A stretch of 63,727 nucleotides of DNA, the filler included, from Kipferlia bialata (lineage: Eukaryota): NCBI GenBank assembly GCA_003568945.1. It is 7 parts of 5 records of this genome, joined end to end, with 100 filler letters (N's around TTAATTAATTAA, not from the genome) between each part and the next. Parts side by side here need not be neighbours in the genome. Positions count along the whole stretch, not along the records: positions 37,683 to 56,531 come from BDIP01000030.1; 6 more parts are not named here. One strand, written 5' to 3'. Under the pieces are notes generated by a model. The model ran no database searches. It was not told the DNA's origin and saw only the letters and a list, made by a program, of their open reading frames with translations. The first letter of the stretch is position 1. The number at the start of each line of letters is the position of its first letter. The translations under genes were made by a program, and so were the position numbers. Positions 20,152-60,512 of this stretch are shown here, piece after piece.

Positions 20152-20679
20152 ACCATATCCTGGCGTAAATCAAGTCCGTCTGCTTACCTATCTTATACAC
20201 GTCAATGAAACAACTCACAAGACACTTGATACTATTAGATCTAGTATCATGTTACCTGTGGGCAGAACGGGCAGCAGTAAATGAAGCACAAGTCCTTGGG
20301 CTTCACTCATTTGTGACCGACGCCTGATAATTAGACTGTTGCACAACCCATAGATCTATGTCAATGTCTAATAAATATACTATGTCAGATGCCATTGATC
20401 GGCCATGCACATCGGAAGACTGAAAGGGAGAATAATGGGTCAGACACTGACCTACAAGACAACCCGTATCGAGGATTTCTAGAGGCGGCATGAGGGTAAA
20501 AAAGGTAGAGCTGAGTCTCAGTCTGATGATCAGACTCTGATCTGAGACCGAGAGGGTGTGTGACAACAAAAACAGGATGACTCTCTGTTTTCCACTAAGT
20601 CAAGGTCACTGCAAGGTTGTAAGTCTCTCTTGAGTGGCCGTACCCCCTGTTTCTAAGGTCTTGGTGGGGTTGAGTTGCC

Positions 20680-27995: not shown

Positions 27996-30019
27996 TCAGA
28001 ACTCTGCCACTGGGCTGGATGAGAGGTTGGGACTGGCGTTCTTTGACCTGAGCCGCCTCTTGTCCCCGGCCTTGGCCCTCCGCCTTGGGGGACCCCTGCC
28101 CTCCTCGATGGCTATGACGGCCTGGGGGTGAGACAGGTTGTCAAATTGATATATATGCTATCTCAGACACCCCATGTAGCATACATATATGTGGGATAGT
28201 ACATATCCATCAGTCCCCACCTCGACAGGTACCACGACATGCTCCGCGTCTGTGTACACCCCCCTGAGCCCTGACACCAGGTACATACCCAGCGCCCCAA
28301 CCGCACACAGACACACATATGCAGTGGGTCCCTCTGCCAGAAGGGAGGCAGGGGTGGAGTCCTCAAACACAGCAAGAAGGGCAGAGAGGGGGTCGGAGAA
28401 GGGGTTCAGCAGCAGCTGGGGCAGCACGAAGGCTAGCATAAAGTGGGCAGAGGTGAGGGAACACCTGAGTGTGAGGAGGTGGCATGATTGACTACAATGT
28501 GTGTACAGTATAACCACTCTAATGCTCGCTACCTGTTTGTCCATGGCATGGACTTGGGTCCCCTCTGTCCAGCTGGTACAGACACTGATAGTCTGTGTAG
28601 GACAAGCAGGGATGCCAGTACCATCAGAGAGGCAGGCAGGGTGCAGACAGCCACTAGGCCAAGGGGGTGTGACACCTTATCAGTGACGTCATCCCAGAAG
28701 GCACCCAGGGACACACTCACCAGCACAGAGAGGAGGAGCAGAAGCTGGGGTCAGGGTAGGGGGGGGGGGAGAGAGAGAGAGTAATGGAACATATACAAAT
28801 ACCAATGAACAACTATGAGTGTAAGTTGTATGGCATCTATGCAATCACCACCGTACCTGTGTGAATGCCGTCGAGTGCTTGAGACAGGGTGCCAGGAGCA
28901 GCAAGGGGAGAGAGAGGGCACCAGCACAGAGGAAGGGGACAGCCCCCAGACCATAGGGCCGGTACTCAGCCAATGGAGAGACAGAGGGGGCCTGGAGTGA
29001 GGGTCAAACGAAGGCTGGAAGTGTCTACTACTATAGACCGACCCACCTCAGGGTATACGATGAGCTCTGCCGCCACTGTACCCATGAGAGAGGCCAGTGT
29101 CACACCGGTGCCTAGGAGCAGGCCAGTCAGGATGTACCTAGGGTGGGGGAGTGGTAGCACTCTTCACTCCTGCAATATACACTATGATACATGCATATAC
29201 AAGATGGCTATATACCTTCTGACTGCCGGGTAGTGCTTGAGCTTCTTGCTCAGAGGGGCCTTGCACCGTCTGGGGGTGGATATGAGTACAAGGGTGAGGC
29301 CCAAGAGTGCCACCACACCTGCTACCATCCAGACCTGGGGTGAGAGGAAGGAGAGAGAGAGAGAGAGTAGTTCTACACCAAAGCCGCTTGATGCCGGTGG
29401 CAATATAGAGTGACACTCACCTCAAATGCATCTATGGCAGCTGGCAGCACAATGACTTCCTGCAGATCCACAAGAGTGTAGAGAAGCCACCTGCGGTGAG
29501 AAAGGATCACGTTGAGACATTCACAACGCATTGTACATGTATGTTACCACCGTACCATACCACAGGTGCTGATGCCACCAGCATACATACATATACATAT
29601 ATATAATTGTCTCTCAGGAATCCTGAGTCAGGATATGTAGACACCGTACCACACCACAGGTGCCGAGGCCACCAGCATGTATCCCATGCCCCCTAGGGTA
29701 TCAGCGAGGGCACGCTTGGTGCCGGGGTCGAGCTTGGTCTTGCTACGCCTGCGGGTTAGACACTATATAACCTTATACTCGAACATGGATGAATCTATAG
29801 CCCGAGTGTACCTGAGCATGAGGTAGAACACTGGGGACACCCCGACCAGGGGCAGTGTCAGCAGACATGGCCAGAGGTACTGGGTGTCTGGGCCGAGGTA
29901 TGATGGGACGTCGATGTCAGGCAGGATAGTGTCAATGACAACCTGGACCACGGTAGATACACCCACACAGAGCAGAGAGAGGGTACACAGCATGAAGAGC
30001 ATGGCAGCCAGTCTCACAC
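27996..30019 (-). CDS. Hypothetical multi-pass membrane protein (5' truncated)
   Basis: Consecutive exons encode many hydrophobic helices (e.g. 'LAAMLFMLCTLSLLCVGVSTVVQVVI', 'YILTGLLLGTGVTLASLMG'). The basic tail ends '...PVAEF*' at 27996. Confidence 0.6.
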
Positions 30020-31792: not shown

Positions 31793-32257
31793 GGTAATTT
31801 TTACTGTGTTTGATGTACATATTAGAGTAACCCTGCATAGCACTGCATTGTGTTCCTGTAATCCTAGTCTTGCTGGCAGAGACTTCAACATGTATAGAGT
31901 TTTGTGTATGGCTACACAGTTCTTGCTCAATGCTAACCTGCAGGAAACGCGCCACGCGCCCTGGGGTTCTGTCACTTCACACCGCACAGAGGGCGAGAGA
32001 GCGCCTCCGGTGATTGTATAATAGATGAAACGATAGTTCATAAGTCTTTTCTAGGCCTAGTACCATGTTTTCTCTATGCATACCATCAATCTCGAATCTA
32101 TTACATTCATCCACACACACGCTTCACACAAGACACTACTACTGCTACAACCACATGTCCTCATCCCCCAAACACGTATACCCTGTAAGACCATCACATC
32201 TAGTCATTACCAGGGACCATGTTATGATTATATACCGTACAGTCTGGATGCACTCAC

Positions 32258-33485
32258 ACCCTCGTCCGTGCTCATGTTGACGTGGTATGGGTCGTCATCC
32301 CCACTGCTGCTCAGGTTATCGACATCGGTGGCAGTCTCCGCAAGCTCGGCCTGAGAGGTCAATGGAGGTCAAGGGAGGTCAAGGATAAAAGGAAATTCAT
32401 ATATGGACTCATACCTCAGCCCTCTCTCTCAGTCTCTTCTGCCTGAGTCTGTCGGCCTCTCTCCTTGCTGCAGTCTCTCTCTCTCTCTCTCTCTCTTCCT
32501 CGAGCCTTCTCTCTCCCTGCTCAAACCTGGACAGTTAGAGTGTGACCCTGATATATCTATATCTATATATCTATATGTCTATCAATCAATATCTAGTTAT
32601 CAAGTTTCTATATCTATATTAATCTGGAACAACATATCGCCGTTATGAGCTCTCTGTATATATGTAATTACTGGTTATACTACTGTGTACCAGGTCCTGA
32701 TGTCTGTACCATATCATAATCATACACGATATCACTGGTTATTCTACTCTATACAATATCAGTATCTGTATCACACTCAGAGGTGTTCAAACTCTCCATC
32801 TATACACTGATACTGTCACTAACTAATACCTGGTCCTGATGTCTGAGACCGATCCCCGACCACTGTCAATCTCCACTGGCTCACTGGTCCTCCTCTCTCT
32901 CTCTCTCTCTCTCTCCTGTCTAGGTGGATACGCACTGGACTCAGGAGTGAAGTCACCCGAGGCCCTGCTTCTGCTGCGTTGGGAGAACTCGTCATTCAGA
33001 GCGGCAAGCTTGCCCTAAGGGTCAGAATATATATATATATATATCCTGTATATATAGAGCAGTATGTTTGCCCTGGAAGTAAAATGTAACTCTCTAATAC
33101 GAGTACAATATCCAAATGTATATAAAGGGATGTTGCGAAAACTCGTCGTTGAGAGCGGCAAGCTTGCCCTACGGGTCAGTGGAAGCAAATATATATATAT
33201 AGTATATACACATAGATAGATGGCGCGACGTCCCATACCCACGATCCATCAAGATGTGAATAGGTTATAACAGTCTGTTTTAGCACCAAGACATCCCGTA
33301 CCTCTGTGAAAATATTAGTCAATGAATTGAAAACACATAAATATCCAATACATACATGTAGTCTATCATACCTGACTGAATGAGCTGAACAGGGTGGACT
33401 GCCCCCTGCCTGTGCTCTGGGTGGTGGTCTCTAGGGAGTTGAGCCACCTGGACAGCATCTGGAGATAAGTGATGGCACTTACGGA

Positions 33486-33526
<41 letters not shown>

Positions 33527-36445
33527 GAGTTGAGCCACCTGGACAGCATATATAGGGTAAGTGGCAATCAACAAACCAATAGATACCTTTCCAGATTCCT
33601 CTCCTAATTATAATCAACCCATCAATCAATTGATACCTTTGATGCCTCTCATAATAATTACAATCAATCTTCAACCAACCAATCATCAATCAACTGATAC
33701 CTTTGATGCCTCGAGGTTCCTCTCACAGTAATAACAATCTTATCAAGCAATCAATTGATTTGATTGACACTGTATCTATACTGTACTTATACTGTATCCA
33801 TACCTTTGATGCCTCCAGGTTCCTCTCAGACACTATGCACTCGGTGCCACTCTTCTTGTCTGCCTCAGCCACAGTCTGCACACTGGTCCTGGCATCAGAG
33901 TGTATATAGATAGTGGGATAAATAGCCATCGATATATCACTATATATAACTATATAGATTCATACGCCACAGTCTGCAGACTGGCCCTGGTATCAGTATT
34001 AGAATATTAGTGAATATACATGTATGTATACAAATATACCTGTAACACTTGTACTCTCATTCTAAGACAAATAAAAACTGATGGAGGGAATATAGGATAC
34101 AGGAGAGAGAGAGAGAAGAGGAAGATCAGTTGCAAATACAATATATTATACAGTTATCGTGAGCAACTTAAACATGCTTCCACACCTGAAGCCCATGAAT
34201 AGGAACCCCACACATAGTATATCTATTATTAATAGAGTATGTATATATATCATGTATAGGATATACGCATGTACCTGAATCCCATGAATAGGAACACCAT
34301 ACTGTCTGCGGCATCAGGGACCTGGTGGTAAGGGTAGATCAATACAATTGTATATATATAGATCAATACATATATATATATATATATGTACATACTCATA
34401 CTGTCTGCGGCATCAGAGACCTGGTGGTGAGCAAAGAAGCGGAGTGAAGAGAATACTCATAGATATACACCCGTATACATACTCATCCTATCTGCGGCGT
34501 CAGGGACCAATTGGTGAGGGTAGATCAACACACACATACATATAGATTAGAATTAATAGAGATGTACACCCATATGCAACTATAGATACTATAATACTAT
34601 AATACTATATTATATATACACATATATACACACCTCGAGGACTGATGCCATGGATGATTGAATTAATGAAAGAGAAGAAATACATGAATATACATGAATA
34701 TACAAAGATACTATATTCATAAATGTGTACATATATACACATATATACCCACCTCGAGGACTGATGCCATGGATGATGCCCGGGAGTGTGAGTGGGAGTG
34801 GGCCTGGTCGGTGAGGGACAGTAGGGTAAGGCATATACATATGTACACCCACATATACATATACATATACGTATATATACATATACCTTAATACTACCAT
34901 GCCGGAGGACTAAAGTAAGGCAAGGCATATACATATGTATATATATAAACATATATATACAAACTCATGAATGTAAATTAGAAATATATACCTTGTCGGA
35001 TAGGGATGCGTCCCTCACTGCATCCAGGGCATCGATGGAGACATATATATATGACATATATAACAATTATATTTATATATATACACATGTAAATATGTAC
35101 CTTGTCGGAGAGAGAGAGAGATGCATCCCTCACTGCATCCAGGGCATCGATGGAGAGAGAGAGCTCGGCTAGCAGCACGTCGCTCTTGTAGTTGGTCTTC
35201 TCCTTGCGTAGCCACAGCTGGTGTTAGAAGTAGGATAGAAGTATGTTAGAAGTATGCTAGAAGTAGGATAGAAGTAGGATGGAAGTATGTTAGAAATGGG
35301 TTAGAAGGCTAAACATTAGAAGCCAGAGAGACTCACACAGTAAGTACAAACACGATACCAAGACGTCGCACTCCCTGGTCATCAGCACCATTAGAAACAA
35401 TAGAGTAAGTATAGTGTCAATATATAGTACTATTATATATAGTAACTATACTATAGTATATCATTATCTGCATATACCTTCACATCGCACTCTCTGGCCA
35501 TCAGCAGTATTAATATATAGTAGCTATACATAATATGATACTCCTATTCATAATAATACTATATAATTAATATATATGCTAATTCATATACATATATATA
35601 TATAGTACCTTCACATCGCACTCCCTGGCCATCAGCACCATTAGTAACAATAAAGTAAGTATAGTGTAAATACACATATATTAGTGATGCATACGTGTAT
35701 AATACAATACCTTCACATCGCACTCCCTGGCCATCAGCACTGCCTTGGTGGATGTTGAGACATTGGCATTCTTCTTGGTGGTGTGGATGTCACCCAGGGT
35801 CACGGGGGCGGTAGGGACTGGAGTGAGACAGGTAAAATAGAGAGAGAGAGAGATAGAGAGAGAGAAATTATATTCACCCAGGGTCACGGGGGGGGTAGGA
35901 ACTGGAGTGAGACATACATAAGGGCATCGAGGAGGAAACATACTTGAGAGAGAGATTCAATGAATGTCCCGGAGGGTCACATGGGCGGAGGGCGAGAATG
36001 TGGCGAGAATTACAATGAGTTACTAGAATGTACAAGCTGATATATGCAGAGGTACCGTACCCTCTGCCACCTCCACGGCCTCTGTCCTCAGCAGCTGTCT
36101 GTCGTCACCTCCAAGGTGCACACTCAGGTGCAGGTAGTGCAGACCCTGGGGTTAGTCAGTTAGAGGATATATATATCAATCTACGCTATACTATTAGTAT
36201 ATCAGTAATGTGCACACTCAGGTGCAGGAAGTGTAGGCCCTAACGAATTAGAAAAGAATGTGAATTGATTGAAATAGAAATTATAGTGGAAGCCCAACAA
36301 GGCATATTTATATACATATATATATATATAACATATGGTACCTTGTCGTGTGCTGCCTTCCACTTTGTGGCCACAGAGTCCTTGCCAGCTGGGCCTGGGG
36401 TCAGGGTACTACTATATACACTATGTGACTATTAATTCTGACTAG

Positions 36446-36476
<31 letters not shown>

Positions 36477-37232
36477 TCCCATTGATTCCATACCTGATGC
36501 CTTGGGTGCCGTACAGTCATTATATATAGAATAGACATCATACAATATGGTACTATACATAAACGGATACTATACTAATAATGAAATATTTGTATACATT
36601 AGAAATATATTATAATACGTATCATGCCATACCTGATGCCTTGAGTGCCGCACAGTCAGATATATACTATATAGTATATACTACTATTATAATGTACCAC
36701 CCTATAAAATACATATCATGTCATTGATACCAATACCATTGATACCTGATGCCTTGAGGGCGGCACAGTCAGATGTACACTATACTCTCTCTCTCTGTCT
36801 ATACATATATATATATATTCATGTCTATACCTGATGCCTTGAGGGCGGCACAGTCCACCTCCACGGCATCAAGGTGCTTGACCTGGGCCTGGGGGTGAGT
36901 GTGGTATATATGTAATACGTAAGTTTATAATAATAGTCTGGAAGCCCTTCAATGGCATGATATATCACATATGGACGGAGGGAAGGGATCTCAGGTACAG
37001 TAGAAACAACGATAGTGCACGCTGTAGTACATATTGTACCTTTGTCTTTAGGAATGTGGATATGGTGCTGGGGGAAACACATAAATACATTACAGTATCA
37101 TATAGTTATCAATATCCATAACTATACACACAGCGCATAATGCGCGATAATACATCATATAGCATGCCTACCTTTGTCTTTAGGAATGTGGATATGGTGC
37201 TGGGTGTGACACTGGACAGCAGGGAGGGGAGC
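32258..37232 (-). CDS. Hypothetical protein, ~15 short exons in long AT-rich, echo-containing introns
   Basis: GC-rich exons with canonical junctions, e.g. 'AQVKHLDAVEVDCAALKAS', 'KAVLMARECDVK', 'LWLRKEKTNYKSDVLLAELSLSIDALDAVRDAS', 'ECIVSERNLEASK'. Both ends are uncertain. Confidence 0.6.
35225..35323. repeat. 11-bp tandem minisatellite (TAGAAGTAGGA / TAGAAGTATGT)
   Basis: About 8 degenerate units abut a minus-strand acceptor. Confidence 0.8.
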
Positions 37233-38090
37233 CTGGGGTGAGTCAATCATATATACCACTTAGAGAGGGGAGCCTATGGTGAGGAGATACACATCTAACT
37301 AAGGGCACTAGGGAGACAGAGAGAGAGAGAGAGATGACACTGGACAGCAGGGAGGGGAGCCTGGGGTAAGTATTAAGCATATATAATAATAACTAATGTA
37401 ACATTAACAAACTGGAGAGGGAGAGAGAGAGATCGGTCAGAGGACAATTGATATATATATATATATATATATATATCAATTGAGTGAGGGGGGGGGGAGA
37501 GGGAGAGAGAGAGAGATCAGACAGTGGAGAGAGGTGAGCCTATTGTCAGGGGGGGGGGGGGGGGGGGAAAAAAAAAAACAAANNNNNNNNNNNNNNNNNN
37601 NNNNNNNNNNNNNNNNNNNNNNNNNNTTAATTAATTAANNNNNNNNNNNNNNNNNNNNNNNNNNNNNNNNNNNNNNNNNNNNGGCACAGCGTCAGCAGAG
37701 GCAGGCTCGGCGGCAGATAGAGTGTGGCTGGTGGGGGGGGTGGGGGGGGGGGGGGGGGGGTCTCAATATCATAGCCTGAGTATTGATATCACTATTCTAC
37801 TCAATTGTGTCCTGCCAGTGTTAGTGTCTGTCTCTGTATCATACAGAGTGAGATGACACTGAGTACACGGATCACCCTCTTGCCCTCCCATTCTCTCTCT
37901 CTCTCACTCCCAGGTGTGTCTGAGGCCACTGTTGCTATTGTTACTATTGTTCTTAAGTACACAAGTATATACAATTAATTCATTGAGTCTTCTCACGCCA
38001 GGTGTGTCATTGGCTACATGTGCTGTTGTAGCTCTTATTATTTACGTTGTGTATATACTGGTAGTATACTATATAGTGTCTCACCCCCAG

Positions 38091-40078
38091 GTGTGTCCGA
38101 GGCCACTGTCGTTGTTGTATGCCAGAGGCTGATGCAGACAATGCAGGTAGACAGACACACAAATATATTCTAGTGTATGAGTACATCATATATATGAGTC
38201 CACCAGGCACTAGGGGGGGGGGGGGGAGCTCATATTTCCGGTTCTCACCTATTGAGGTTCGATATCTCTATATCGTTGTATATTCTACCACTTTCCCCTC
38301 TCACCCCAGGAGCAGGCTGCCCAGACTGTCAAGCTGTATAATAATATGTATTATAGTATATGTTTTATACACATATATACTAGTGTATGAGTACATCATA
38401 TATCTCACCCCAGGAGCAGGCTGCCCAGACTGAGACTGTCAAGACATTCTCAGCACTGTTCTCAACACTTGCAGACCAGGTAAATGTGTTATTTGTTCTT
38501 ACTATTTGAATGCTTGAGTATTCCTCATTTCACTTGGCTAGTATATTATGTGTTTATGTTTCTCAGTCTCACCCACTACAGTATCCCAATGTATTTGAAT
38601 ATTGTATCCTACTATATAGCCTCACCCTCAGTTCGATGCCCCCGGTGACAGACACAACACACCCCTGGAGATGGTGGCATTTGTGTGTCTAGGTAAGGGA
38701 TGAGTGCTCAAGCGTATACTTCCACCCCTTGAGAGGAAATTCTACATGTATGATTATATGTTTATGTATTCATATGTATATTCATATACATTAGTAAAGA
38801 TTCAACACACCACTGGAGATGGTGGCATTTGTGTGTCTAGGTAAGAGAATATGTGTACCTCTTGGTACTAGGAGGATACCAATTTGAATACATTTTGTAT
38901 GTGTGTATTTCTCTTACACACCCCTGGAGATGGTGGCATTTGTGTGTCTAGGTAGGAGAATATACATATTTGTGTGTGTCTAAGAAGGAGGATACCAATT
39001 ATATATACATATATGTCGTGTTGTAGCCTCTAAGTCTTAGTAGTTCAACACGGAAACATGCTTCTAACCATGGGTAGGTATAATATCTTTCAACTTATTT
39101 TTCTCATCCATAGGCATTGTGCCCCAGCTGCCATCGGTATCAATATATGTATATAGATTAATATATATATATATTTATCTTTTCTATTAGTCCAACACGG
39201 ACACATGCTCACCCCTAGGCATTGTGCCCCGGTACTATTTCTTTCACATTATATACTCATCCATAGGCATTGTGCCCCAGCTGCCATCGGTGGCATCAAA
39301 CGTCAGAGAGGTAAGAGTATATTGTGGTAGAGTTCGATAATGATTCAATGGAAGGTTGCTTTAGCTATATAATGTTAAATATGTCCCCACCATATGCCAT
39401 GATGGTTGCTCTACATACATTGCTGAATGTTCTGTTCCAGTCACATCTCTCTCTCTCTATATCTATGCATCTGTATCTGAACTCAGGCTATGATGGCTGT
39501 CCTCCACACCCTCCTCAATGGCCTGTTCCAGTCACCCTCTAGAGAGACTAGGGAGGGAGAGAGAGAGGGGGAGGGAGAGGGAGAGACACAGGCCATCACC
39601 CTCCACGCAGACTCGAGAGAAGTACTGACTGCATGCATGCCAGGTATATTTACCTATACATTGTATATATAGTAAAAATAGTATACATAGTATAAACTGA
39701 TAATAAGTAAATAGTATATATAGTATTCATTTAGTATATATGCAGACTCGAGAGAAGTACTGACTGCATGCATGCCAGGTATGAATGCATTAATATTTAA
39801 TTGCAGTGCATGTTTAATATATTAATATGCATGTAGATATATGTACTCGAGAGAGGTTCTTACAGCTTGCATGCCAGGTATGAATGACTAGTAGAGAGAG
39901 TGTGTGTAAATCGTAACTACATATGTCTGTGTGTGTGTGAAGTGATTCATATGTGAAGTGCTGTCAGCGTGCTAGGTAAACTGTATGTATCTCATCTCTC
40001 ATTAGCAAGACCTGTTATTGGATCTCTCCGTCTTTCTCTTTAGCTAGACTCTTACTGTCAGGTCTAGTTGCTGCCCTT

Positions 40079-40120
<42 letters not shown>

Positions 40121-40157
40121 AGCTAGACTCTTACTGTCAGGTCTAGTTGCTGCCCGT

Positions 40158-40197
<40 letters not shown>

Positions 40198-43100
40198 AGC
40201 TACACTCTTATCGTCAGGTCTAGTTGCTGCCCTTCTCTCCATATCCGATGGCGAGAGTGAGGGCAAGGAGTACAGTGCTAGGTATGCATGAGTTGTTATA
40301 TAACATAAATTATAGTATATTTTTCATTTCATCGACCCCACGAGATCCCTGCGGACCAAGCTCATGCCTTTGCATAGCATTTGTATATTTCCCGTATATA
40401 TATATCCCCTTTCCCTAACACACTAGGTCCATGCTGACCAGGCTCATGGCCGCATGACTATACTCCGAGTATATATTATTATATATTCATACATACATAT
40501 ATATATCAACACTAACCCACTAGGTCCATGCTGACCAAGCTCATGGCTGCATGACTATTCTTTATTAATATACTAAGGGTATACATATATATTCATATAT
40601 ATATATATATAGTACTAACCCACTAGGTCCATGCTGACCAAGCTCATGGCTGCATGACTATTCAAAATTTACTATACATAGGGTATATGTATATACTCTG
40701 TATTCTGAACTATATATATCAACACTAACCCAGGTCCATGCTGACCAAGCTCATGGTTACATGACTATTCCTTATCACTATACTAAGCGTATACATATAT
40801 ACTCTATGCGTATACATATATACTCTATGGTCTTTATCAATCAAATAATACTAACCCCTTAGGTCCATGCTGACCAAGCTCATGGCCGCATCCCCATCGG
40901 CTTTCTTTGCATCAGTCTTCAAGGGTAAGTGTAGTGTATATATATTATTGTAGTAATTGTAGTAGTCAATATTTTTCTTATGCGTGTCGATGGTTTCCTA
41001 TATCGGCATTCTTTGCATCAGTCTTCAAGGGTATGAAGATGGGTTACAGTACATCGATATTGTCACTTATTGCGTACGGGTGAATCTAAGATATACTCTA
41101 GCTGACGGGTTGTCTGCATGGATACGTCTCACCCTATCTGAGTATAAGTATTTTTACATACATTTACCTATCCCATCCCACCCCAGGTCTCAACAGCCCC
41201 ACCGGCAGGGTCTCTGCTGCAAAGACCATTGTGGAGCAGGTGGGTGGGATACCTTATTATACAAGTCTTCTTTCGAAGCTACTACATCTCATATCCCCAT
41301 ATTGCCCCCCCCCCCCCCCCCCCCCTCCCCCCCCCCCCCCCCTCCCCCCCNNNNNNNNNNNNNNNNNNNNNNNNNNNNNNNNNNNNNNNNNNNNNNNNNN
41401 NNNNNNNNNNNNNNNNNNNNNNNNNNNNNNNNNNNNNNNNNNNNNNNNNNNNNNNNNNNNNNNNNNNNNNNNNNNNNNNNNNNNNNNNNNNNNNNNNNNN
41501 NNNNNNNNNNNNNNNNNNNNNNNNNNNNNNTTAGTGAATCATATATAGGGCAAGGGGAATACGCCCCCCCCCTCCCCCCCTCCTAAACGGTTCACACTCT
41601 TCCTCTTATGCACCAACTCCTCCATATTATCCCCCTCATTGTATGTACCCCTCTCTCCTCTTCTGACCCTGTTACTCTGCTTGTTTATATGTGTCTACCC
41701 TTGACCCTAGGCGGAAGAAGCCGTCTCTCTTCCTGCAAAGGAGACAGAAGGAGAGGGAGAGAGCAGCTGAGATGGCTGAGATGAGGAAGGTATGTTATGT
41801 TGTATGTATGCTCACTATTGTGAAAACTATTGTATACTGAATATATTTTTGTATTTACATTCAGCTGTTATATAGTAATAAATATATTCACCCATAGGTC
41901 ATTGCCGCAGACATGCCAAGTGAGAGAAACCTACCTGTTGGAGAGCCAACCATAGAGGAGATGGTCAGGAAGGCACAGGTATATTGGTATATACATATAC
42001 ATTCTTCTCTCAATGTAGTAATGTATAGAAGATATAATCAGAAAGGCACAGGTACAGACCGTGTTCGATCTATTTGTGTTCTACAGAACGCTTATAACTG
42101 GATATACATTTGTATTAGTTTGTGTTTGTATGTACTGTCTTGTGACATCAACCATGTCTCACCCCCTAGGTCCTAGAGGCCCAGAAGAAGAAGGAAGAGG
42201 ACTTGGCCAGGTACAGTATATACTCATATAAATATAACTATATGTATAAATATCATATTCGGCTATATGTAATTGCCCCGTATAGAATGTCAAGTATTGA
42301 GGGAGCTTCTCTCTCTTTCCCCCTTCTCTCGCTATCACTATGTTCCATCAAGGACCTTCCTCAATTTCTCTCTCCTTCTGTCTCTGTATATATGTTTCAA
42401 TTCTCTTACCCCTAGGTTTCGCGAGTCTGTCTAGGACCTACCTCTATTACTCTCTCCTTCTCTTTGGCGTATTATATATTCGTGCAATTACTCTTACCCT
42501 AGGTTCCGCGAGTCTGTCAAGGACCTAGTGGGCGATGCCTCATCCATTGAGCAGGGGTACCTGCCCCCTGCTGTTACTGCCCCTCCCCCTATCCCTAGTG
42601 TACCTAGTGGACCTACTGTGCCCAAGCCCCCTGTACAGGAGAGAGAGAGAGAGACTGATGCCCAGACATCCTCTGCTGATGCAGACTCCCTCCTCTTCTC
42701 TCTCTCTGGGTCCATCCTCCACCCAGACTCCCAGCAGGTATAGTGATACACGGCATATATATATTTATGCAGGTATGATACAGTTCAATATGGTATATAT
42801 ATAATGTATTAGAGTTCATAGTATATATGTCATTATTTCAGTACACCCATACTCCCAGCAGGTATGATATGTACCATATACTATATATGCTATGTATTAT
42901 TATTGTTAGAAGTACTTTCATAATAGTTACAGTACAAGATTATGTTTACACTATATTATGAATTACCTCACTCTTCTGATCATGCTCTTTCCCCAGGTTC
43001 TGGATGGCCTTGCTGTCTCTCTCCCCACCCTGTCCCGTCTGGTCCAGTCTGCATACACCCCACAGCGGACACAGGCTCTGTCACTGGCATCTGTGGTGAC

Positions 43101-46100
43101 CACAACAGCTAGGTATATACCTTTATGTATACATATATACTGTAACTGTATCTGTATTATACCCCAGAGGACACATGCTCTGTCACTGGCATCTGTGGTC
43201 ACATCCACTGCCAGGTAGAATATATGAATTACACATTATACATAATGTATAGTATTTAGTCCCTGATGCTGTCATTTACTGTAGAACAGGTGGCTGTTGT
43301 ATCAGTAGCAGTGATATTCTGAACAGTGTAATACATGCCATATATTGATTGTAGTGATCAGTAGTATATATATATGGATCCTTGCTGTAGTATATATATA
43401 TTGCTCCTTGCTTGGTCTTCATTCATACCAGGACCAGTGGATATGGCAGATGTTATGGACAAGTGTAACAGCGGCATTATTCATTTAGATACATAGCGTT
43501 TCACACTGCTTGCCAATACCATATTGACCCCAGGACCGGTGGCTATGGCAGCAGGAGCAGTGATGTCCTGGACAGTGTCACCACCAGTGTGCTCATACCC
43601 ACTGTGCAGAGCAGTGCGTCTGCCAGCACACAGGGCAGGATACACAACGCTAGGTATATATATATATGTGTAAATACTCTTAAGTGTAAGTGTTCTCTAG
43701 GGTTAGGTAGTGCATCTGCCGGTACTCAGGGCAGAATTCACAACGCTAGGTATGCATACATTCATATACTCTTAAGTGTATATGTTCTTAGGGTAGGGTA
43801 GTGCATCTGCCAGTACACAGGGCAGGATACATAACGCTAGGTATGGATTCATATATATACATAGGGCACAACACAGTCTATATATATACATACAATAGTA
43901 CATGAGTTAATAATATATCAACCATGTTCTTATTGTCAGGTTCCTCATTGGCGCCCTCCCCGACCCCGCTCTTCCCCTGCAGTGCCTGCTGCTCTCCCAG
44001 CTCTCTCTCTCTGCCCTTTCTTCTAAGGGTCCAGAAAAGAGGGTGCAGTACCCCACCCCAGTCCCCCCCTCCCACCCTGCACCCCTGTCACTCCTGCAGG
44101 CACTCCTCTGCAACCAGGTACAATGCATGTATATATATATATATATTCATTGCTTTATATATATATATACATGTCCCACACTTCACCCCTCTCCCTACTG
44201 TAGGCACTGCTCTGCAACCAGGTACTCTATGGATTCGTATACACATACTAATTCATACATATACATAACATATATACATAAATATCCCACCCGCCTCTCC
44301 TCATGAAGGTCCAGCAGGCCCCCATGCTGTCTCTCTCTCTCTCTTCTTCCTTGTAACACACTCTCTTCTCATTATTTAGGTCCAGCAGGCCCCCATGCTG
44401 TCTCTGTGCCAGGCCGAGCCAGAGCTCTATGCCAGGCTGAGTGCTGTGGCAGGCTCAATCGACACAGACACCGTCAAGGGTATGATGTGTATGAGTTAAT
44501 CACTTGTTCATGTGTCAACTACAGTGTAGTAGTGTCACGGCGACGGTCATTAGACCTATTATCTATGTATACCATTTACTATATGTATACCTTTCTTACC
44601 CTAGGCCCGACAGTGACCACACCCGGCACTGGGTGTAACTGTATTATACTATCTCCTAACATATACATGTATAAATGTATATATATATATATATATAATA
44701 CTCACTAACATTAGGCCCGGACAGTGACCACACCCGGCACTGGGTGGTGGAGGCAGTCAGAGACAGGCTGGACTCTCTGTCAGCATTCCTCTCAAGGTAT
44801 ATATACATTGATTTAATATATTAGTTATGGCATTCCTCTCAAGGTATATATATTGTAAAAATGTGTTGAGTATATTTCAATATACTCCCGCCGGCCCTCT
44901 TTTGCCCTCTAAGGATACCCTCTTTACTGCTTGCGTATTGTCTTGACCTTGATGTTTGCCTTGTTTACTGTATTGTATTATTTGTATTGTTCACTCATAC
45001 CCAGGTCTGTGCAGGCCATATATAACATATATGTATATAATATACATATATCTACCTATTCTCTCTCTACTAATACCCAGGTCTGTGCAGGCCAAATATG
45101 TCATATGTATGTATTATGTATTTTATGTATATATTTCTTATCCATACTTGTACATATTCTATTCTTATACCCAGGTCTGTGCAAAAGTATTGATCCTCCT
45201 ATACCGAGTACATAGTGATATGTAATATACATTCTAATAATCAGGTCTGTGCAGGCCAAGCAGGACAGACAGGCAGGGCCAGGGGACACTCAGACACTGC
45301 AGGTGAGTTCTAATACACTGATATATACTCTATCATTGAGTAAATCTGGTTCCGTAGTTATCGTTAATGTATTGACACCCAGATCTCCGAGTCCGTTGTG
45401 AGTGAGCTAGCCTGGCTCCTCCGGTCTGCCTCTCTCCTCCTGTCCCAGAGGGTGCCCACTCATGAGTCACTGGTGCTTACTGTCCTAGGCCTAGTGGGCA
45501 CACTGCTAGAGGTTGGTTCACTGTGTATGAAAATTAGTGGTGTTATTATTGTTTCTTCCAGATACTCTTCCCTGTTTCCATGTACCATACACTTACCCCA
45601 GGTCATCTCCGATGGGTCTGTGGGTGATGACACCCCAGCCGGTGCCTCCCTCTCTCTGTCTCTCTGCCGCGATGCTGCTCTGGCCCTCTCTGTCTGTAGG
45701 GGTGTAGTACCCACACTCTCCACAGTAGAGCAGGGGGAGAGAGACACACAGAGTGAGAGCAGCCTCCTTGTTGTCTCTCAGGGTGTCCTCCAGTCCTTGG
45801 TCTCTCTCTCCATTCAGCACATGGGGCGCTCTCTCTCCCTCCCCTCCCCTATTGTCCTGCAGACATGCTGCATGTCGGTTGGTGCACTCTACCCCCTGCT
45901 AGACCCTTCTGCCAGAGATTCTTTGGCAGCTGAGGCACTACCTACCCTGCTCAAGCACGTTAAGAGAGAGAGAGAGGAGGAGGATGGTGGAGAGAGACTT
46001 GCCCCTTGCATGGAGGCACTGTTACTATGTGCCACACTGTATAGGGACACTGTGACCTCTGATGCTCTGGATGCCATGCTCTATGTCTCACAGTGGGAGA

Positions 46101-48005
46101 GGGACCTCGCACTCACACTCTCGGGGGCACCGGCTGTGGCATCACCACACGCACACTACAAGGAGGTACCATATGTTGACGTGATCATATCCTCGTTTCT
46201 GTCCTCTCTATGCCAATATTTCTCTCTTTACTACATAATTGCATATATATATATATGTGTGTGTGTGTTCCTCTCACATTCAGGTCCCTAGCGCACTTGA
46301 GACCTCTGCCCTCCTCTCCCTTGTGAGGAGTCTCATGAACAGGGGGGCAGAGGGGGCAGAGCTGACAGACCTTGCTGCACTACCCCCTGTACTCCTTCAG
46401 CCCATACTGCTGGGCATGCCCATCCACCAGGCACTCTCCATGCCGGCACCACTCTCACTGTGCCCCATATTGGCACAGAGGTATGCATATTTATACCTAT
46501 GTACTATACTCTGTATCTGTATACTTTACCTATATATATATCCTCATACTGACCCATACTGGCACAGAGGTATACATGTATATGTATATATAGCCATATA
46601 ATGGGTCATATGAATCTCTCTCTCTACCTCTCTCTGTCCCACTATCAACACAATGGGTCTAGACCTAGTCAGACTCTATCTCGTCTCACTCTCAGGTACA
46701 TCGTTGAGAACGAGGCCACTTTGGTAGAGCAGGGTCTCCCCCTCACCCTCCTTCCCCTCATGCGCGACAGTCTCTCTCTCTCCCTCCCCCACGTAGCCGA
46801 GTCCTCCCACATCACTGTCCCCCCTATGTCTGGGAGGTACGCACCCCTAGTGGCTGCTGTGCCGCCTAGAGAGACTGGGGGTACACCCGAGGAGTGTGCA
46901 CAGAGCGATACAGTCACCCTGGGGCTCCTCTGTGTCGCTCTGATTGGCCTTCAGAGCAGTACCTCGCGGGTTTCAGTCTCTGCGCGTTCCTACGCGGTTG
47001 ACGCTCTTGCGCTTATCTTTGCTGTGGCCAACCAGGCTTTAGAGGACTCAGATACCCTCATTGTGACCTTTGAGAGGATAGCGAGTGCCACTGTGGATAG
47101 CATATCCAGCATCACTGTAGACCCCTCTGCCCCTTCCACTGGGTTCCCCTCTGTCACACTCTGCAACACCACATACACACCTGTGGGGTGCATACAGCTG
47201 CTGGGTGCCAGCATGAGGACCTGTGGCTGGTGTGTGCCTGACCACCTCTTGTCTTCATGTCTTTCTCTCCTGCTGGCATCACCTGTAGTCGATGTGAGGG
47301 CCGAGGCATGGTCTCTGTACCTGTCTGAGTGCATAGTGGTCAAGGGCCGGGATGCTCTGGCTGCCACAGCGGGACTGGAGGTGGAGAGAGAGTACAAGGT
47401 AAATATAGTATATATATGTGGGTTCTCTCCCTATATAACACATATGGTACAATAGTATGTAAAAGAGTGATAACAACAGGTCATCTCTGCCATTGTATCT
47501 GCCCTGGATGCCATGGTTAAGAGTGTATATATACCATTAATATATGATATATATACATCCCTTACCCTAGGTTATTAGTGCCATTGTATCTGCCCTGGAT
47601 GCGATGGTCTGCAATGGAAGGGCACCAGCACGCAGGATGCCGTTTGTGGTGGCAGCAGCCAGATACCTTCTTAGGTAGAATTGTATATGCAATTTATTAT
47701 ACTTCTCTTACTGATCTACTCCATGGTTATCCTACAGTGAGGTATTTGTATGATTATGTATATGTGAAATATAATAATCTATCCTGACCCATCAGGTGCA
47801 GCCAGGAACAGGGTGGCAAGGCCATTATCAGATATATTACTTGTATGTATATTATGGGTATATATACTAATATATATATTTGTATATCACATATACATAT
47901 ACTATTAACCCTAGGTGCAGTGAGGCCCAGGGTGGCATGGCCATTGTCATGAGGTGTGGGGGTGACATGGACCTGTACACAGCACTCGCAGCAAAGGAGC
48001 TCTAA
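38091..48005 (+). CDS. Large hypothetical alpha-helical (ARM/HEAT-like) protein, >25 exons, spans the N gap 41351-41530, 5' truncated
   Basis: Leu/Ala/Ser-rich helical exons (ORFs 45398-46291, 46601-47455) plus many short exons. Ends '...DMDLYTALAAKEL*' at TAA 48003-48005. Continuity across the N gap is assumed. Confidence 0.6.
41351..41530. other. Scaffold gap (180 N); second gap at 48910-49074 (165 N)
   Basis: N runs without linker, next to poly-C/poly-G tracts. Confidence 0.95.
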
Positions 48006-49080
48006 CCAGTAATTCCAATAGAGTCACGTATAGTCTGATTCATACACTGATGCTGTTCTCAGCATTATTTTTCGCAGCAAAGGAGCTGTAAAGGAGCTGT
48101 AAAGCTGCATCCTGCAGGTATGATACACGAAGATTCTCCCAATAGACCCTCACGCATTTACATGAGATAGATCGTTCCACTCCCCATATCAGAAAGTCAA
48201 TATGATTGCATCACTCAAATCAATACAGCTGATCATATTGGCGTTTTGATTGTCAAACGCCATATACGGTTGAGTCCAATGCCTAATCTCGCGCTGTCTC
48301 TTCCTTCATCTAGACCATCTAGTCTTGGTGTTTCAACAATAGATGCAGAAGAACCTTGGCACAGCGTGTCTGGCCACTGCGTGTCTGGCCGGTGCCACCA
48401 TTGTATACACCCTGCTGACGTCATTCATATTCAGGTGAATACATGTATATCCAAATACCCTCTCCTGTTCCCTGCATTGACATCCACCTGCCACTTCTCC
48501 CTTACAGCTAATTGTACATCATATATATATGATATCTATATCTATATGATATCATATATATGATATACATCATTGTGACTGTGTCTCCACATTCCTGACC
48601 CCCCCCTCCCCTTCCCTCCCTATTTAAGACATCACCTAGCCAAATGTCATTCTCTCTCCCTAATGACAGCTGGGAAGGCTACCTCCCCACCATCTCCGTT
48701 GCTGCCCTCTCCCCCAATGCCACGCACGTGTACTGCTGGGGCCTATCAACAAGGTATGCATACTCATGTACACCATATATCCCTTACAGAGTTCCCAATA
48801 ATGCCCCACATATACTGGTGGGGCCTGGTATCAGGTCTCTCTCTCTCTCTCTCTCTCTCCCCCCCCCCCTTCCCCCCACCTCTCTCTCCATACATTTCTC
48901 ACACGTACANNNNNNNNNNNNNNNNNNNNNNNNNNNNNNNNNNNNNNNNNNNNNNNNNNNNNNNNNNNNNNNNNNNNNNNNNNNNNNNNNNNNNNNNNNN
49001 NNNNNNNNNNNNNNNNNNNNNNNNNNNNNNNNNNNNNNNNNNNNNNNNNNNNNNNNNNNNNNNNNNNNNNNNNNCCCGCG

Positions 49081-49120
<40 letters not shown>

Positions 49121-49177
49121 ATACATGCGATATGGATGTGATAGAACGAAAACAGATGTATGTTCTACACCGCATAC

Positions 49178-52100
49178 CTAGCTGCCTGCACTGTGGCTCT
49201 GATAGCTGTCAGCTCCTCGGCATGGGCCTCTGCAAACACATGTACAACGTCAGTCACTGGTGGTTGGAAATGGGTCATTTGAACATTGGTATACACATAT
49301 ACACATCCCGTACCTGACTCTGCCATCTGCTGGTGGTTCTCGGCCAGCAGGGTGATTGTCTCCTGGGCATCCTGGGGGTGAGGGGTGGTGTCTCCAGATT
49401 CATACACATATCTATCTGTTTATCTATCTAGTCACAATGACACACACTGCACACTCACCCTGAGTCCGTTGAGTGCCACGTCTGTCACAACTCTGATGGA
49501 CTCAGCATGGGTGTTCATCTCCTGGGGGGAGGGGGGGAGGGCTAGGGAAGAGTGTACAGGCAAGTATCCTCAGAGTGAATGACATATATACATATACATA
49601 CCTTCTCCATCAGGGCGTATGTGTCCTTGAGTGCCTGCTGCAGTCTCTCCACCTCGTCTGTCAGCAGTCTCTCCCTCACAGTGCCCTGGGGTCAGAGAGA
49701 GAGAGAGAGAGACAGAGAGAGATAGAGAGAGAGATTAATGACCCACCTCATCGGCACTGGCCTTGGAGGCACCTGCCAGGGCAGCACACCTGGGGTGAGG
49801 CAAAGGGTATGTATGAGGTATGTAACGTACCACGCATACAGATATCATCACCCACACTATGCACCATGTACATGCTACCCCCACCTGCTGTCTGCGTCTG
49901 ACTGCACTGCACTGGCAGCAGAGTGCACAGCACGGGACAGGTCACGCACAGCGGCAACGGCCTTGGCCTGGCTGGTCAGACACACAATACTGTATACATA
50001 TGACTATCATGTACTTCCCCACCTGCATCTGCATGGCTGTCTTGTTCTGCATGACCACAGACTCAGTGACACCGTTGATGGTGTCAATGGCCTTGGACGA
50101 CATGGACCGGTTGCGGCCTGGGGGTGAGGGGAAGGGGGACGTGGAGGGAGATTAGTGCATATGTACCATATACCCACCTGTTGCGAGGCCTATCTCCTGA
50201 GCCAGCTGGGTGGTGACATCACTCACAATGCCCGCATTGACACTATCGCGCTGACGGCCTGGGGGTCAGTGCATATACTGAGTGACAATTGTATAGATAC
50301 ACTGATCTGCTGAAGGGTGGTGTGTATAGATATAATATATACTATTACTATCTCTGGATACCCACCCTGCTGCAGCTTGGAGTACAGAGTGGCAGTGTGT
50401 GTCTCCTGGGTGTGTAGCTGGCTGCTGAGTCCAACGGCCTGACCCCTGGGGTGAGAGGGACCGATGACAGAGAGTGAGAGGAGATAGTGTCTATCAACTG
50501 ACCTGAGCCTTGCGTTAACAGCCCTGTCCTCTGCAATCACAAGCTGGTCAATGTCTGGGGGGTTAGAGAGGGTTGCGAGGTTGTAAAATGAACAGAGTCA
50601 ATAGGGGTAGACTGCCGCACCTCTCTCCTGCCTCTCTGAGGCCAGTTCGTCTGTGAGGGTGGCTGCCTTCTGCTGCACAGCTGTCAGCTGGGACTGGCTG
50701 GGGTAAAGAGGGGGGGGGGGAGTTACAGATAGTGGAATCACTGTGCCAACTGAGACACTGTAGACTCTGTATGGTAGACACCCACATACCGCATGTTGAG
50801 CAGCGTCTGTGTCTCGTTGAATGTCTTGGTCAGCACCTCCAGCTCAGCCACAATCTCAGCGATGCGGGTGTCCCTCTAGGGTGAGAGAGAGGGGGGGAGG
50901 AAGAGGGGAGAAGAGGAAGCAGACATATATAGTACATGGTGAGGGACTCATCTCAATGAGGGTATATACGGGACTCACAACAATACACCTTCAACGTCAC
51001 TCACAGTAAATACCACTGTAGACCCAAATACTACTACACCACTCATATGCACTAGACCCCACCTCCTCTGCTGTTGTCTGCATCTCCTCATACTCTCCTG
51101 GGGCCAGGTATGTGCCGTTCTTCTCCCGCTGGGCACGGAGGTCCTTCCTGTGGTGTTAGGTATAAATACATACAGAGAGAGAGAGGTAGGGAGAAACGTG
51201 CCTGAGCCTCTCGAGCTGGAGCTCGTATGACTTGACGACTGTCCTGGACGACACCCTCTGGTTGACCTCGGGCTTGTTCTTGATGGACTTGGCACTGGGG
51301 TCAGAAACATACGTTACATATGACATGGTATATGATGCAGACAGAGATAACACATACTACAAACAGGTGTCAGTGTCATTGTATAGATGGGTATCGATTT
51401 GGACTGGGGTCAGGATGGACACAGAGATATACGCTAGAGGTATACACATACTACACACCTGTTCATGTAGTTGAGTGTGTTCATGGTCTCCTCCACACTG
51501 GACAGACAGGGAGACACGGTGGCAACAATGGTGGTCTGGGGGGTGAGTATATGGGGGATGATGGTGGGGGTGGGAGGAGGGGGGGGGGGGATAGATTCAG
51601 CACTCTGTAAGAAAAGCACGCCCACCTTTGTGCGTCCTCCCAGAGACTCCTGAAGGAGCCTGGTGAGCTTGGACTCACTGAGGGGTTAGACACACACAGA
51701 TACAAACAGATAGAGTATGTGAGAGAGACACCCTCGTACCGGTATGGGATGTGGACCCTTCTCTGCACCAGGGCTGTGATGACTCTGCCCAGTGTCAGCA
51801 GGGACTGGTTGATCTTGCCGGCCTCGGCTGCACGGCCCTTGACGGCACCGGACCTGGGGGGTGAGGGAAGGTATAGATACGCAGAGAAATAAATAGATCA
51901 CCTGTTGATAACATTCCATATATCCACAATGATAAGTATCCCCCACCTGTCAATGTTCTCTGAGCCAGCCAGATCGACTAGGTTGAGCTTGCCTGTCTTG
52001 ATGACGTCGTTGCCATCAATGTCAGTCTCCTGGGGGGTGAGGGGGAGTGTAAGGGGAATGGATAGGAAGGAATTGTCTGAAAGAATTACACAATCATTAT

Positions 52101-53384
52101 GACCGTCTATACCACAACCAGCTGTACCTTGACCATGGTTGTGATTGTGAAGATGCAGTGGCTTCTGGAGGAGTTGGTGTTCATGAGAGTGGAGGCTGGG
52201 GGTGAGAGATATGGATATGTAGAGACACCAATATGAAGGGACATATATATACACTCCCTCAGTACCTGTTGTCCTGTGGGCACTGCTCTTCTGCAGCAGA
52301 GACAGCACGTCATCACTGCACATCACAGGCACCTCCTGGGGGGTCAGACATATATATCTACGCGACACAGACAGTCACATCAATAGGCACCCATTGCATA
52401 TATATACACACCTGGAGGTTGTGTACTGTGATCTGCTTTCCCTTGTTGTACTTGTCCTCAAAGATGCGGAGGGGGAGGTCGGTGCCAGGCTCGGCAAGGA
52501 GATCGTGGAGGTCCTCATTGTAGACCTGGGGTTGGTAAGGTAAGGAGAGAGGGACTATTTCGATACACATTGATAGAGAGGATGGAGAGCCACACTAATA
52601 CACACTCCACCCACCTCGAGATGGGACACCTTCATCGTGTAGTCACACCCACTGTTCTCAAGGACATCAAAGATCTCCATGACAGCCCTGGGGGTGGGAT
52701 CACTGGTAGATGCAGCATATATCATAGAGAGGGGGGGTAGGGAAGAGAACAGAAAATATGGTATAACATACACACACATTGACACACCTTGGGATGACTC
52801 CGCTGGTCTCTGGCAGGGGTGACCCTGGGACGACGGAGGATAGAGAGCCTGGGGGCCCCTCCATGGTGAAGGTCTTGCCTGGGGTAAGTGGAAGAAGGGG
52901 TGAATAGTGAAGACAGAGAGATAATGAAAAGGTGAGTGCAGCAGAAGCGTACCTGTTCCTGTCTGACCGTATGCAAACACAGTGCAGTTGAACCCCTTGA
53001 GGAACTCCTGAACAGTGCTGGAGAGGACGTGCTTATAGAAGTGGGCCTGGTCTGGGGGTAAGGGGAATCCATGTATGTAGAATAATAATATACAGAAGAA
53101 CTACTTTACATGTATTCATGTTATGATAGAATATATGGGTCTAGTATCATATGTCAAGTGAGAGGGGGGGGGGGGTACGAGTGATGAGTAGGAATGAGAG
53201 GTACTGCAATAGGAACTGAAGTGTATAGACTAGGAAAGTATTGCACACCTCTTTGGCTGTGACACAATCATCACATCGTACAATACATACACTACACTAC
53301 ATGTGTAAACTCCTGTATCATATCTACCCACCTGTGGCAGGACCGAACACCTGGTCGAAGCTGAACTTACGGGTGCTGCCATCA
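49178..53384 (-). CDS. KIF11: Kinesin-5 (BimC/Eg5) motor and stalk, multi-exon, 3' truncated
   Basis: '[10 protein letters not shown]', '[22 protein letters not shown]', '[12 protein letters not shown]', '[12 protein letters not shown]', '[21 protein letters not shown]', '[20 protein letters not shown]', '[22 protein letters not shown]'. The kinesin-5 neck '[12 protein letters not shown]' and 'REKNGTY' are present. Confidence 0.93.
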
Positions 53385-53475
53385 CTGGGGGGTGAGAGGG
53401 GGAGGGAGGGGGGGGGGGGGGGGGGGGGATGGTATGTAGAGAGAGAGAGACAGGGATACATATATTAAGCCGCAC

Positions 53476-56469: not shown

Positions 56470-56956
56470 CTAGGGTGAGAGGAGAGGCGGGGGGGGGGGG
56501 GGGGGGGGGGGGCAAGGGACCCACCCCGGGGNNNNNNNNNNNNNNNNNNNNNNNNNNNNNNNNNNNNNNNNNNNNTTAATTAATTAANNNNNNNNNNNNN
56601 NNNNNNNNNNNNNNNNNNNNNNNNNNNNNNNTGAAGAAAAGAAAATGGTGGGGTGTGGGGGGGGGGGGGGGGAGGGTGAAGTAACTCTTCTGAACTGGAG
56701 AGTCAGAACATACAAAGATTCTGCGCACAGTCAACACATGACATGAGTTACATCATGTATCTTACATGTATATCGATGTCATACAATCTACAATATGTAT
56801 TATATATGACCCACATATACATACTACGTATACCAAATGTATTCGGTTACACTATATGGGTGACAGGTAGCATCAAGGCTTGAGAAGTGTCAATGAGGGA
56901 GAATGGGTATTGAATCAAGAGAGAAGGAGAGAGGAAGGGGGGGGGGAGAGTGTTAC

Positions 56957-57954: not shown

Positions 57955-59453
57955 TTATATCCACACTCCAGCATTCAACCCCTTGTCTGGCTGCGAGCAT
58001 GGAATTACTAGGTCAGGATCGAATCTTAGCACACTTAGAGACAGAGTCCAACCAAAACCTCTGGTAGTTTCCATCAGCAGTTGCGATCCATGTCCCAGCT
58101 CCGCCTGAGCCAGTGCACGTAGAGGCCCTGAAGGGGCGCATCCACACACCTCCCACTCACCACTCACCGTGTCGAAGGTAGTCCACCTCTTAATCCCTCC
58201 CACACGCTGTGGCATTACCACTCTTTGATCAAGCACAGTTACCCTTCTGTATGTATCCATGCCGCAATCCCATATACCAGTACTGAAGCGCTCCAGTACC
58301 CCCGTCTCGTCACACGTGTACACACCCTCCAGACAGAAGAGATATGCTACATCTCTCACCACACGCACCACCTGTATCGTCAATAGGATTCCCTGGTTCG
58401 CTGATAGCGTGACCCACCCTTCCTCCTCCCTATCGGGGTCATATGTATACACATGAGTGCTCTCACTGCCGTACCGATTGACTGACCTGCACCCTAGCAG
58501 TCTACCACCTATAACAAAGGTATGCTTCAACCATGGGTGATTGGCCTTGGGGGAAGGGTAGCCAGGGGCGACGGGTGGAGCTGGAGGAGGCTTGACGCTT
58601 CTGACCTTCATGGTATCCAGGGACAGCTCAACGAGATTAGGCGCTGCCACATAAAACAGTCTGGTACCAATAGCATGCAATCCCTCCGGCATCGATGGGA
58701 CACAGAGCGAGAACCTTGACGCTATACCTTCCACAACACAGGTAGACCCTTCGCTACTAATGCGAAGAATAGCAGAGACACTGGGGCAATCAGGGTACAG
58801 ATCATATGATGACAAGAGCGCATGTTTAGCCTCTAGGTTGTTTGCAAAGACTAGACCGTGTCCTAAGGCCACTAGCCGTGTCGTTTGTCGAAGGCAGAGG
58901 CCAGCGGGTAGGGTGCACCTAAAGGTAAGAACAAGCAGAGGAAACAAACGTGGAAACTAGTATATATATTGCATATGTTATATATATCCTGTATAATGTG
59001 TTATCAGCACCTATTGTTGAGGGGGTGAGGTACAAATATCCAAAGAGGAAGAGTGGGTGGTCTGGCCAGTAATACTGAGGCCAGCGGGTAAGATAGAGAG
59101 ACAGAGAGAGAGAGAGAGAGAGAGGATAATACTGAGGCCACCGGGTAAGGAGCGCATTATAGTACACAGCATGGTGTCAGGTACACAGTATGGATGCAAG
59201 TATACTATCCATATACTAATGACAGCGGGGGGGGGGGAGGAAGCATCCTGAGGCATACACCATATCGGGTTATGTGGAGAGAACCGCCAAGGAGAAATGT
59301 ATGTAAATATGTAAATATGTAAATATTGATAATGATACCAGACTAGTAGTATGGGGAATTCGTAGGGGTGATATATCACACAGGGGACGCATAGTATATG
59401 GGTGCTTACCTTGTGATGTGGATATCTGAATCTGTCTGGCACACATCCATGTC
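57955..59453 (-). CDS. Kelch-like beta-propeller protein (5' truncated)
   Basis: Long terminal exon (from ~58918) with 'FVIGGRLL', 'YTYDPDREEEGWV' and 'TFDTVSGEW'. An upstream exon lies at ~59410-59453. Confidence 0.6.
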
Positions 59454-60113: not shown

Positions 60114-60512
60114 GTCCAAGGACCTGGGTGAGAAGAGGAAGGGAGGGGCAGCACAGAGGACAGGTATGGATACATATATGTATATATATGTATTAATATA
60201 TACTATATACTACATAGTGTATGTGTGTATGAGCGGAAGGGAGGGGCAGCACAGAGGACAGGTATATATACTAATATAGTGTATATTCTGTACTGCTATT
60301 GTTCATTTATGGTTCACATATGTGTACGTTATAAGTGATATAATATAAAGAGGAAGGGAGGGGCTGCACAGAGAACAGGTATGGATACTATGTAATATAA
60401 TATAGTGTATGTATACTCTATATGGTATACATGTGTGTGTATGGGGGGGAAGGGAAGGGCAGCACAGATAACAGGTTCTTATACTATGTAGTGTAATCGG
60501 ACTCTATGGTGA

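Follow-up and report, generated by a model that had tools for sequence, protein, structure and literature searches.

Silent-biased copies of exon edges in the introns of Kipferlia bialata and their possible origin from divergent alleles

Kipferlia bialata is a free-living, anaerobic protist. We analysed a stretch of its genome of 63,727 nucleotides, made up of contigs joined by N linkers (hereafter the window). In three of its genes, most introns contain short copies of the edges of neighboring exons, here called echoes. The focal gene was recognized through a 100% match of one large exon to the K. bialata database protein KIPB_000288. The three genes are listed below.

38093-48005, plus strand: focal gene (KIPB_000288 / KIPB_001015), 24 GT-AG exons, 1143 aa mapped from the database protein; 17 of 23 introns and the upstream flank hold the 34 echoes that were detected.
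About 32228-37360, minus strand: second gene, 13 hand-annotated exons that form one open frame; 11 of 12 introns and the upstream flank hold 21 echoes.
60036-61519, plus strand: CRIPT-like gene (Pfam Cript, E = 7.6e-7); both of its 2 introns hold echoes, 9 in all.

The focal protein is annotated twice in the species, in forms of 1143 and 1164 aa that are identical across all 1143 common residues, and the second annotated copy contains none of the amino-acid changes found in the echoes. P0004 was considered as a divergent donor and rejected because its protein is identical. The 1164-aa form has 21 extra residues at its start, encoded at 37853 and running into an acceptor echo (region 37853-48005). 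Searching 1.84 billion representatives recovered only the query itself, and comparison with Pfam gave nothing above threshold, Dopey_N appearing only below it. These searches thus gave no relative of the focal gene by which the changes might be polarised. A metagenome scan with the large-exon protein yielded a single partial 30% match (L001:714-938; E = 4e-7 among candidates only), a likeness that is probably chance. Long stop-free frames also occur elsewhere in the window, at 15454-20169 on the minus strand (1571 aa) and at 9601-11826 on the plus strand (741 aa); judged by eye, the latter resembles pentapeptide repeats.

Echoes were collected with an ungapped search anchored at every exon-intron junction of the three genes, two of which were annotated by hand without RNA; the census excludes gapped or very short copies (echo 3, described below, among them), genes at 28-32 kb and one stop-codon echo. 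It comprises 64 junction-anchored echoes, distributed over 30 of the 37 introns. A unit consists of 12-53 nt of exon edge and an AT-rich spacer, with a median length of 102 nt. Donor-side copies (n = 34) and acceptor-side copies (n = 30) are both represented, and the splice dinucleotides are largely preserved, with GT kept in 34/34 donor echoes and AG in 25/30 acceptor echoes. Some echoes carry both motifs at lengths of 21, 33 or 39 nt (33966-33986 on the minus strand, 43709-43749, 43800-43840, 60938-60975, 61032-61075 and 61256-61299); judged from their boundaries, such frame-keeping, AG/GT-bounded copies are candidate new micro-exons.

In an annotation-free scan, neither the 1-28 kb region nor a kinesin gene (49100-56480, minus strand) that lies about 1 kb from the echo-rich focal gene yielded junction copies. 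The kinesin gene is intron-dense and echo-free, with 41 acceptor-like sites, and its intron ends are GC-richer (0.45 versus 0.31). Its lack of echoes beside an echo-rich gene indicates that the process is not uniform. Two more junction copies were seen in other genes, at 29540-29678 and 59070-59149. In the 3' flank of the focal gene, at 48074-48091, the last codons and the stop are themselves echoed (17/18 nt match; CTC/CTG silent; TAA kept), so copying also occurs at a coding edge that has no splice site.

The array that follows exon 5 of the focal gene was resolved in detail; all of its features lie on the plus strand.

39396-39444: acceptor-side echo of the exon 5 start, with 12 differences in 49 nt, about 8 of them silent (AMMvaLHTLLNvLFQS).
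39487-39643: exon 5, the working exon (AMMAVLH...SREVLTACMP G), with its donor GT at 39644.
39644-39741: spacer 0, 98 nt, AT-rich, beginning at the used donor.
39742-39778: echo 1, a 37-nt exact copy of the exon 5 end, followed by GTATGAATG.
39845-39877: echo 2, 33 nt with 5 differences, followed by GTATGAATG.
39955-39977: echo 3, EVLSAC at 39955-39972 (14/18 nt match), then TAG|GT after a 4-nt gap; outside the 64.
40062-40089 and 40141-40168: two acceptor-side copies of the exon 6 edge, also in intron 5.
40218-40281: exon 6, joined to exon 5 in a spliced contig.

Exon 5 ends in the ten codons TCG AGA GAA GTA CTG ACT GCA TGC ATG CCA (SREVLTACMP) and a G|GT junction, with its last base at 39643. 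Its reading frame, for which a sequence-only reading of this DNA had wanted a cDNA check, holds: both other frames contain stops, the database protein contains SREVLTACMPG, and a spliced contig (with GT-AG joints, its source run being presumed RNA) joins exon 5 directly to exon 6 at 40218. That contig spans exons 1-8 and skips every echo in between, including the 33-nt, AG...GT-bounded piece within echo 1; it represents the one transcript form seen, and contigs drop rare forms. The presumed RNA run has zero depth over the echoes, a figure given no weight here. A DNA contig matches 39753-40069 without a single difference and reproduces echoes 2 and 3. The exon 5 echo array is thus real DNA and is removed by splicing in the only form of transcript observed. 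Folding of the RNA over 39600-39990 made no case for structure (z = -1.7; 6/100 shuffles equally good).

The identity of echo 1 with the exon end, reported in the same reading, extends over all 37 nt, and the run of five consecutive third-position changes that it noted in echo 2 was recovered as well: the differences fall at 39855, 39858, 39861, 39864 and 39867, and all are silent (5/33 nt), leaving the peptide unchanged. Five silent changes of five have p = 0.0013 under random change and p = 0.013 if the exon alone was protected, both values being uncorrected for the choice of this echo among many. Echo 2 had also been called the clearest single sign of a coding history, which it is not; the echo at 39396-39444 has about 8 silent changes among its 12. 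Echoes 1 and 2 have in common the 9-nt donor start GTATGAATG, which is absent after exon 5 and which unrelated donors match over 9 nt in only 2/539 pairs; spacer 0 aligns with the other spacers no better than unrelated intron starts do. Because the coding part of echo 1 is that of exon 5 and its donor start is that of echo 2, echo 1 is a mosaic, as an exchange confined to exons would give.

From its sequence, echo 3 is probably a genuine third echo. Among 125,261 positions of the window it alone, apart from the copies already described, matches EVLTAC at 5/6 residues or more. It contains an in-frame stop; its free local alignment is weak (shuffle p = 0.049), and 32% of 588 control windows score equally well. 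The earlier description of echo 3 as more decayed fits its length and its 4-nt gap, but not the 18 nt common to all copies, over which it has 4 differences against 5 in echo 2.

Beyond the splice signals, the intron flanks of echoes resemble those of their exons scarcely more than they resemble other introns (identity 0.62 for echo-exon pairs versus 0.60 for unrelated introns). Ranked individually, 12/64 flanks fall in the top 5%, so some residual homology exists, and 1/64, that of the echo at 40141-40168, is near-identical (0.95). The flank score does not track divergence of the exon part (p = 0.27), and among exon-identical echoes of at least 20 nt, 7/9 have flanks outside the top 5%. Within arrays, units often have a common breakpoint, and 16/37 pairs agree in length to within 1 nt, compared with 10% in the background; this sharing of length suggests that arrays likely descend from a single founding duplication. 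Branch-point-like motifs occur at 7/34 far joints and 1/34 mid-spacer positions, a hint only. Two origins for the units were rejected: spacers as whole introns, as donor-like motifs at acceptor-echo ends are at background level (7/30 versus 18/90; p = 0.44), and a cDNA template, as echoes continue into GT/AG intron sequence and not into the next exon.

The sequence-only reading had further proposed that divergence rises with distance from the exon, as in a time-ordered array. Across arrays this survives as a weak tendency: in 8/14 the echo most distant from the exon has diverged further than the closest one, in 4/14 it has diverged less, and 2/14 are tied (p = 0.19), and pairwise comparisons, which are not independent, run 25 for, 7 against and 5 tied. 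Over 33 focal-gene echoes the Spearman coefficient is -0.12 (p = 0.52). The rise with distance is a tendency and no clock. In the CRIPT-like gene, at 60792-61429, the silent differences form a nested series along the array, in which three echoes have one in common and the last two another; this nesting is the clearest time-order signal found here.

The differences between echoes and exons are strongly biased towards silent sites. Over the 64 echoes, 33, 17 and 99 differences fall on codon positions 1, 2 and 3, respectively, and pN/pS is 0.21 (0.23 without echo 2; 0.23, 0.25 and 0.09 in the focal, second and CRIPT-like genes). Bootstrapping over 41 arrays gave a range of 0.145-0.30, with 0/5000 replicates at 0.5 or above. 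By site class, 47/1167 0-fold and 63/337 4-fold sites differ, a divergence ratio of 0.215. Even a dead copy should show a degree of silent bias, since the working exon goes on accumulating silent changes, but this sets a limit of about 0.5 for the ratio, and a neutral dead duplicate would lie at that value or above. Against the corresponding 2:1 limit the excess has p = 2e-7 with echoes taken as independent, 0.001 with 137 unique differences and 0.024 with trimmed interiors. Simulations run through the same detector gave ratios of 0.48-0.62 over 12 settings of a dead-copy model, and 0.23 and 0.21 for a donor-allele model with mean donor distances of 0.13 and 0.2. Since pN/pS stands at 0.21 where a dead copy would give about 0.5 or more, exon and echo were likely both protein-coding after they diverged. 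The claim of a coding history is thereby supported, with more weight from the whole set than from echo 2; a plain time-ordered series of dead copies cannot yield such a value.

Ordinary dead tandem copies on the same chromosome would have to owe their excess to the exon alone, through third positions made fast by GC-biased conversion or codon selection, or through a constraint that freezes the echoes. In favor of this explanation are a skew at 4-fold sites, where G or C in the exon faces A or T in the echo 30 times and the reverse 10 times over all 64 echoes, the shared changes, which are all silent (10/10) and partly nested, and the pairwise gradient. After rough correction the skew stands at about 32 versus 14 (p = 0.011), and decay explains part of it; equal alleles plus decay do not explain it fully. 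Yet exon 4-fold sites would need to change at about four times the neutral rate (corrected distances 0.215 at 4-fold and 0.041 at 0-fold sites; excess 0.13), and GC-conserving changes show the same excess (23/337 4-fold versus 12/1167 0-fold sites; p = 4e-4), so that GC-biased conversion is insufficient. Where a single echo departs from a state that the exon and a more distant echo have in common, 9/16 such changes are silent versus 27% expected (p = 0.013), so coding constraint likely acted on the lineages of the echoes themselves. The simulated ratio never fell below 0.48, and most exon-identical echoes have unrelated-looking flanks. We regard dead copies as an unlikely source of the pattern.

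We lean towards a different reading, without holding it firmly: that the echoes derive from the exon edges of other, divergent alleles and were deposited by recombination that would pair only in exons, the donor being deduced from the sequence pattern. The silent bias, the background-level flanks, the common breakpoints and the splicing out of the copies are the points in its favor that we count as established. If echoes are donor-allele edges, the silent excess measures the distance between alleles, at about 0.13-0.2. Against such donors speak the 4-fold skew, the identical second protein, the echo-free neighbor gene and the sample of three genes. The background-level flanks also weigh on this side, as they need either introns that change far faster than silent sites or exon parts that were re-homogenised. 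No second allele appeared in a DNA run over 37780-41290, for which one substitution and one insertion were listed, both in the intron 6 array and probably reflecting units laid on each other.

Alternatively, the donors might have been copies that were later lost or overwritten, either a diverged paralog or, in an old hybrid, the copy from the second parent; echoes would then be scars of exchange between such copies. Certain echoes differ at 40-64% of silent sites, which is high for alleles, and the assembly holds two annotated copies of the gene; against this, both copies encode the same protein, protein searches returned no diverged paralog, and divergences run continuously from 0 upwards and do not form two classes. 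This origin seems to us quite improbable. Still less credible is that echoes are translated today, as minor cassette exons or alternative exon ends kept by present-day selection on the protein. Besides the retained splice dinucleotides, 14/64 echoes combine an AG with a GT motif and 7/14 of these, echo 1 included, have lengths divisible by three; but 7/14 is close to the one-third expected, 50/64 did not show both motifs, and in the spliced contig, which as such drops rare forms, no echo is included across intron 5 or elsewhere in exons 1-8. Among the 50 amino-acid changes, conservative replacements are no commoner than at random (p = 0.26) and 3 changes are stops, in addition to the in-frame stop of echo 3; the changes look like later decay. 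Finally, a tandem concatenation of haplotypes or strains in assembly is scarcely conceivable: the assembly is, in the sections of PMC5874029 drawn on here, a draft from short reads, the focal gene is annotated twice, and among the DNA pieces listed none bridges exon 5 to echo 1, but the separate contig over 39753-40069 has a depth of 469 (flanks 364-453), others among the listed pieces cross echo-spacer joints without differences, and echoes show decay, stops and common breakpoints.

Origin from divergent alleles could proceed in three steps. A break in an exon would probably first be extended on the homolog into an unlike intron, where annealing fails and end-joining leaves a founding duplication of the junction. 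The echo could then mispair with the homolog's exon, and unequal exchange or conversion would add units that carry the coding edge and intron end of that allele. Each intronic unit would afterwards decay neutrally, by about 4% so far, and may be tolerated because it carries only one splice site. Parts of the literature consulted supply precedents: failed annealing followed by end-joining yields tandem duplications (PMC8654963), and in the hypervariable fungus Schizophyllum commune crossovers are concentrated in exons and silent diversity is 0.13-0.20 (PMC4209137, PMC4576712). According to the sections of PMC8516963 considered, metamonads are without Ku and fornicates without Rad51A, and the alternative end-joining machinery is full in some metamonads and partial in others.

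The closest known counterparts are the amphioxus mirages of Adh3, the globins BflGb6 and BflGb9, troponin C and PGBD5, which, in the main-text passages compared, are likewise tandem copies across either exon-intron boundary, with splice signals kept and splicing normal, as here (PMC3087553, PMC3902484). Unequal crossing-over was suggested for them, and amphioxus is highly heterozygous (same passages). Mirage units of BflGb6 are 81-100% identical over their whole length, whereas in Kipferlia only the exon part is alike; echo density is also far higher than that described in these passages for mirages. By the measure of whole-unit likeness the Kipferlia echoes are therefore mirage-like and not a classical mirage minisatellite. 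The word 'synonymous' does not occur in the main text of PMC3087553.

Three further systems are comparable in part, as far as the portions of the sources considered describe them. In the 37-bp VNTR of human F7 intron 7, a real donor is followed by silent copies and the most upstream donor is used, as here, but it is one locus with sequence-identical units, and its abstract does not mention a coding history of the copies (PMC1557585). Tandem duplications in C. elegans helq-1, attributed to failed SDSA and polymerase theta, offer a route to the founding duplication, with a lower size limit of about 100 bp; they arise in a mutant background, have a median of about 1 kb and, in the portions considered, show no tie to exon edges or a divergent template (PMC8654963). 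Heterogeneous duplications at a mosquito resistance locus place two divergent alleles on one chromosome, as proposed here, but these are whole working genes under selection, unlike the 12-53 nt non-coding remnants in Kipferlia (PMC6121789). The sections of the Kipferlia genome paper used here report 124,912 introns, contain no occurrence of 'duplicat' and do not mention junction copies (PMC5874029). In a literature search that left most subscription papers outside its reach, no report of such repeats in Kipferlia was found.

Duplications of exon-intron junctions are generally taken for neutral debris; in Kipferlia the sequence says that both copies were likely coding after divergence, and this points to exon-restricted exchange between highly dissimilar alleles. 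The reduced spliceosome (87/174 proteins, PMC6679479) ignores near-perfect decoy splice sites. If the allelic origin is true, the arrays show intron turnover and growth in a hyperdiverse eukaryote, give an estimate of diversity from a single genome, and bear on whether the many introns of Kipferlia are ancestral or remodelled. It is possible, though doubtful, that Kipferlia routinely swaps its exon edges with those of divergent alleles through an unusual repair that lacks Ku and Rad51A, with introns storing the displaced versions. Were such replacement routine, one genome would archive past coding alleles, from which population diversity and allele turnover could be read, and its introns would offer a permanent stock of partly assembled new exons and introns.
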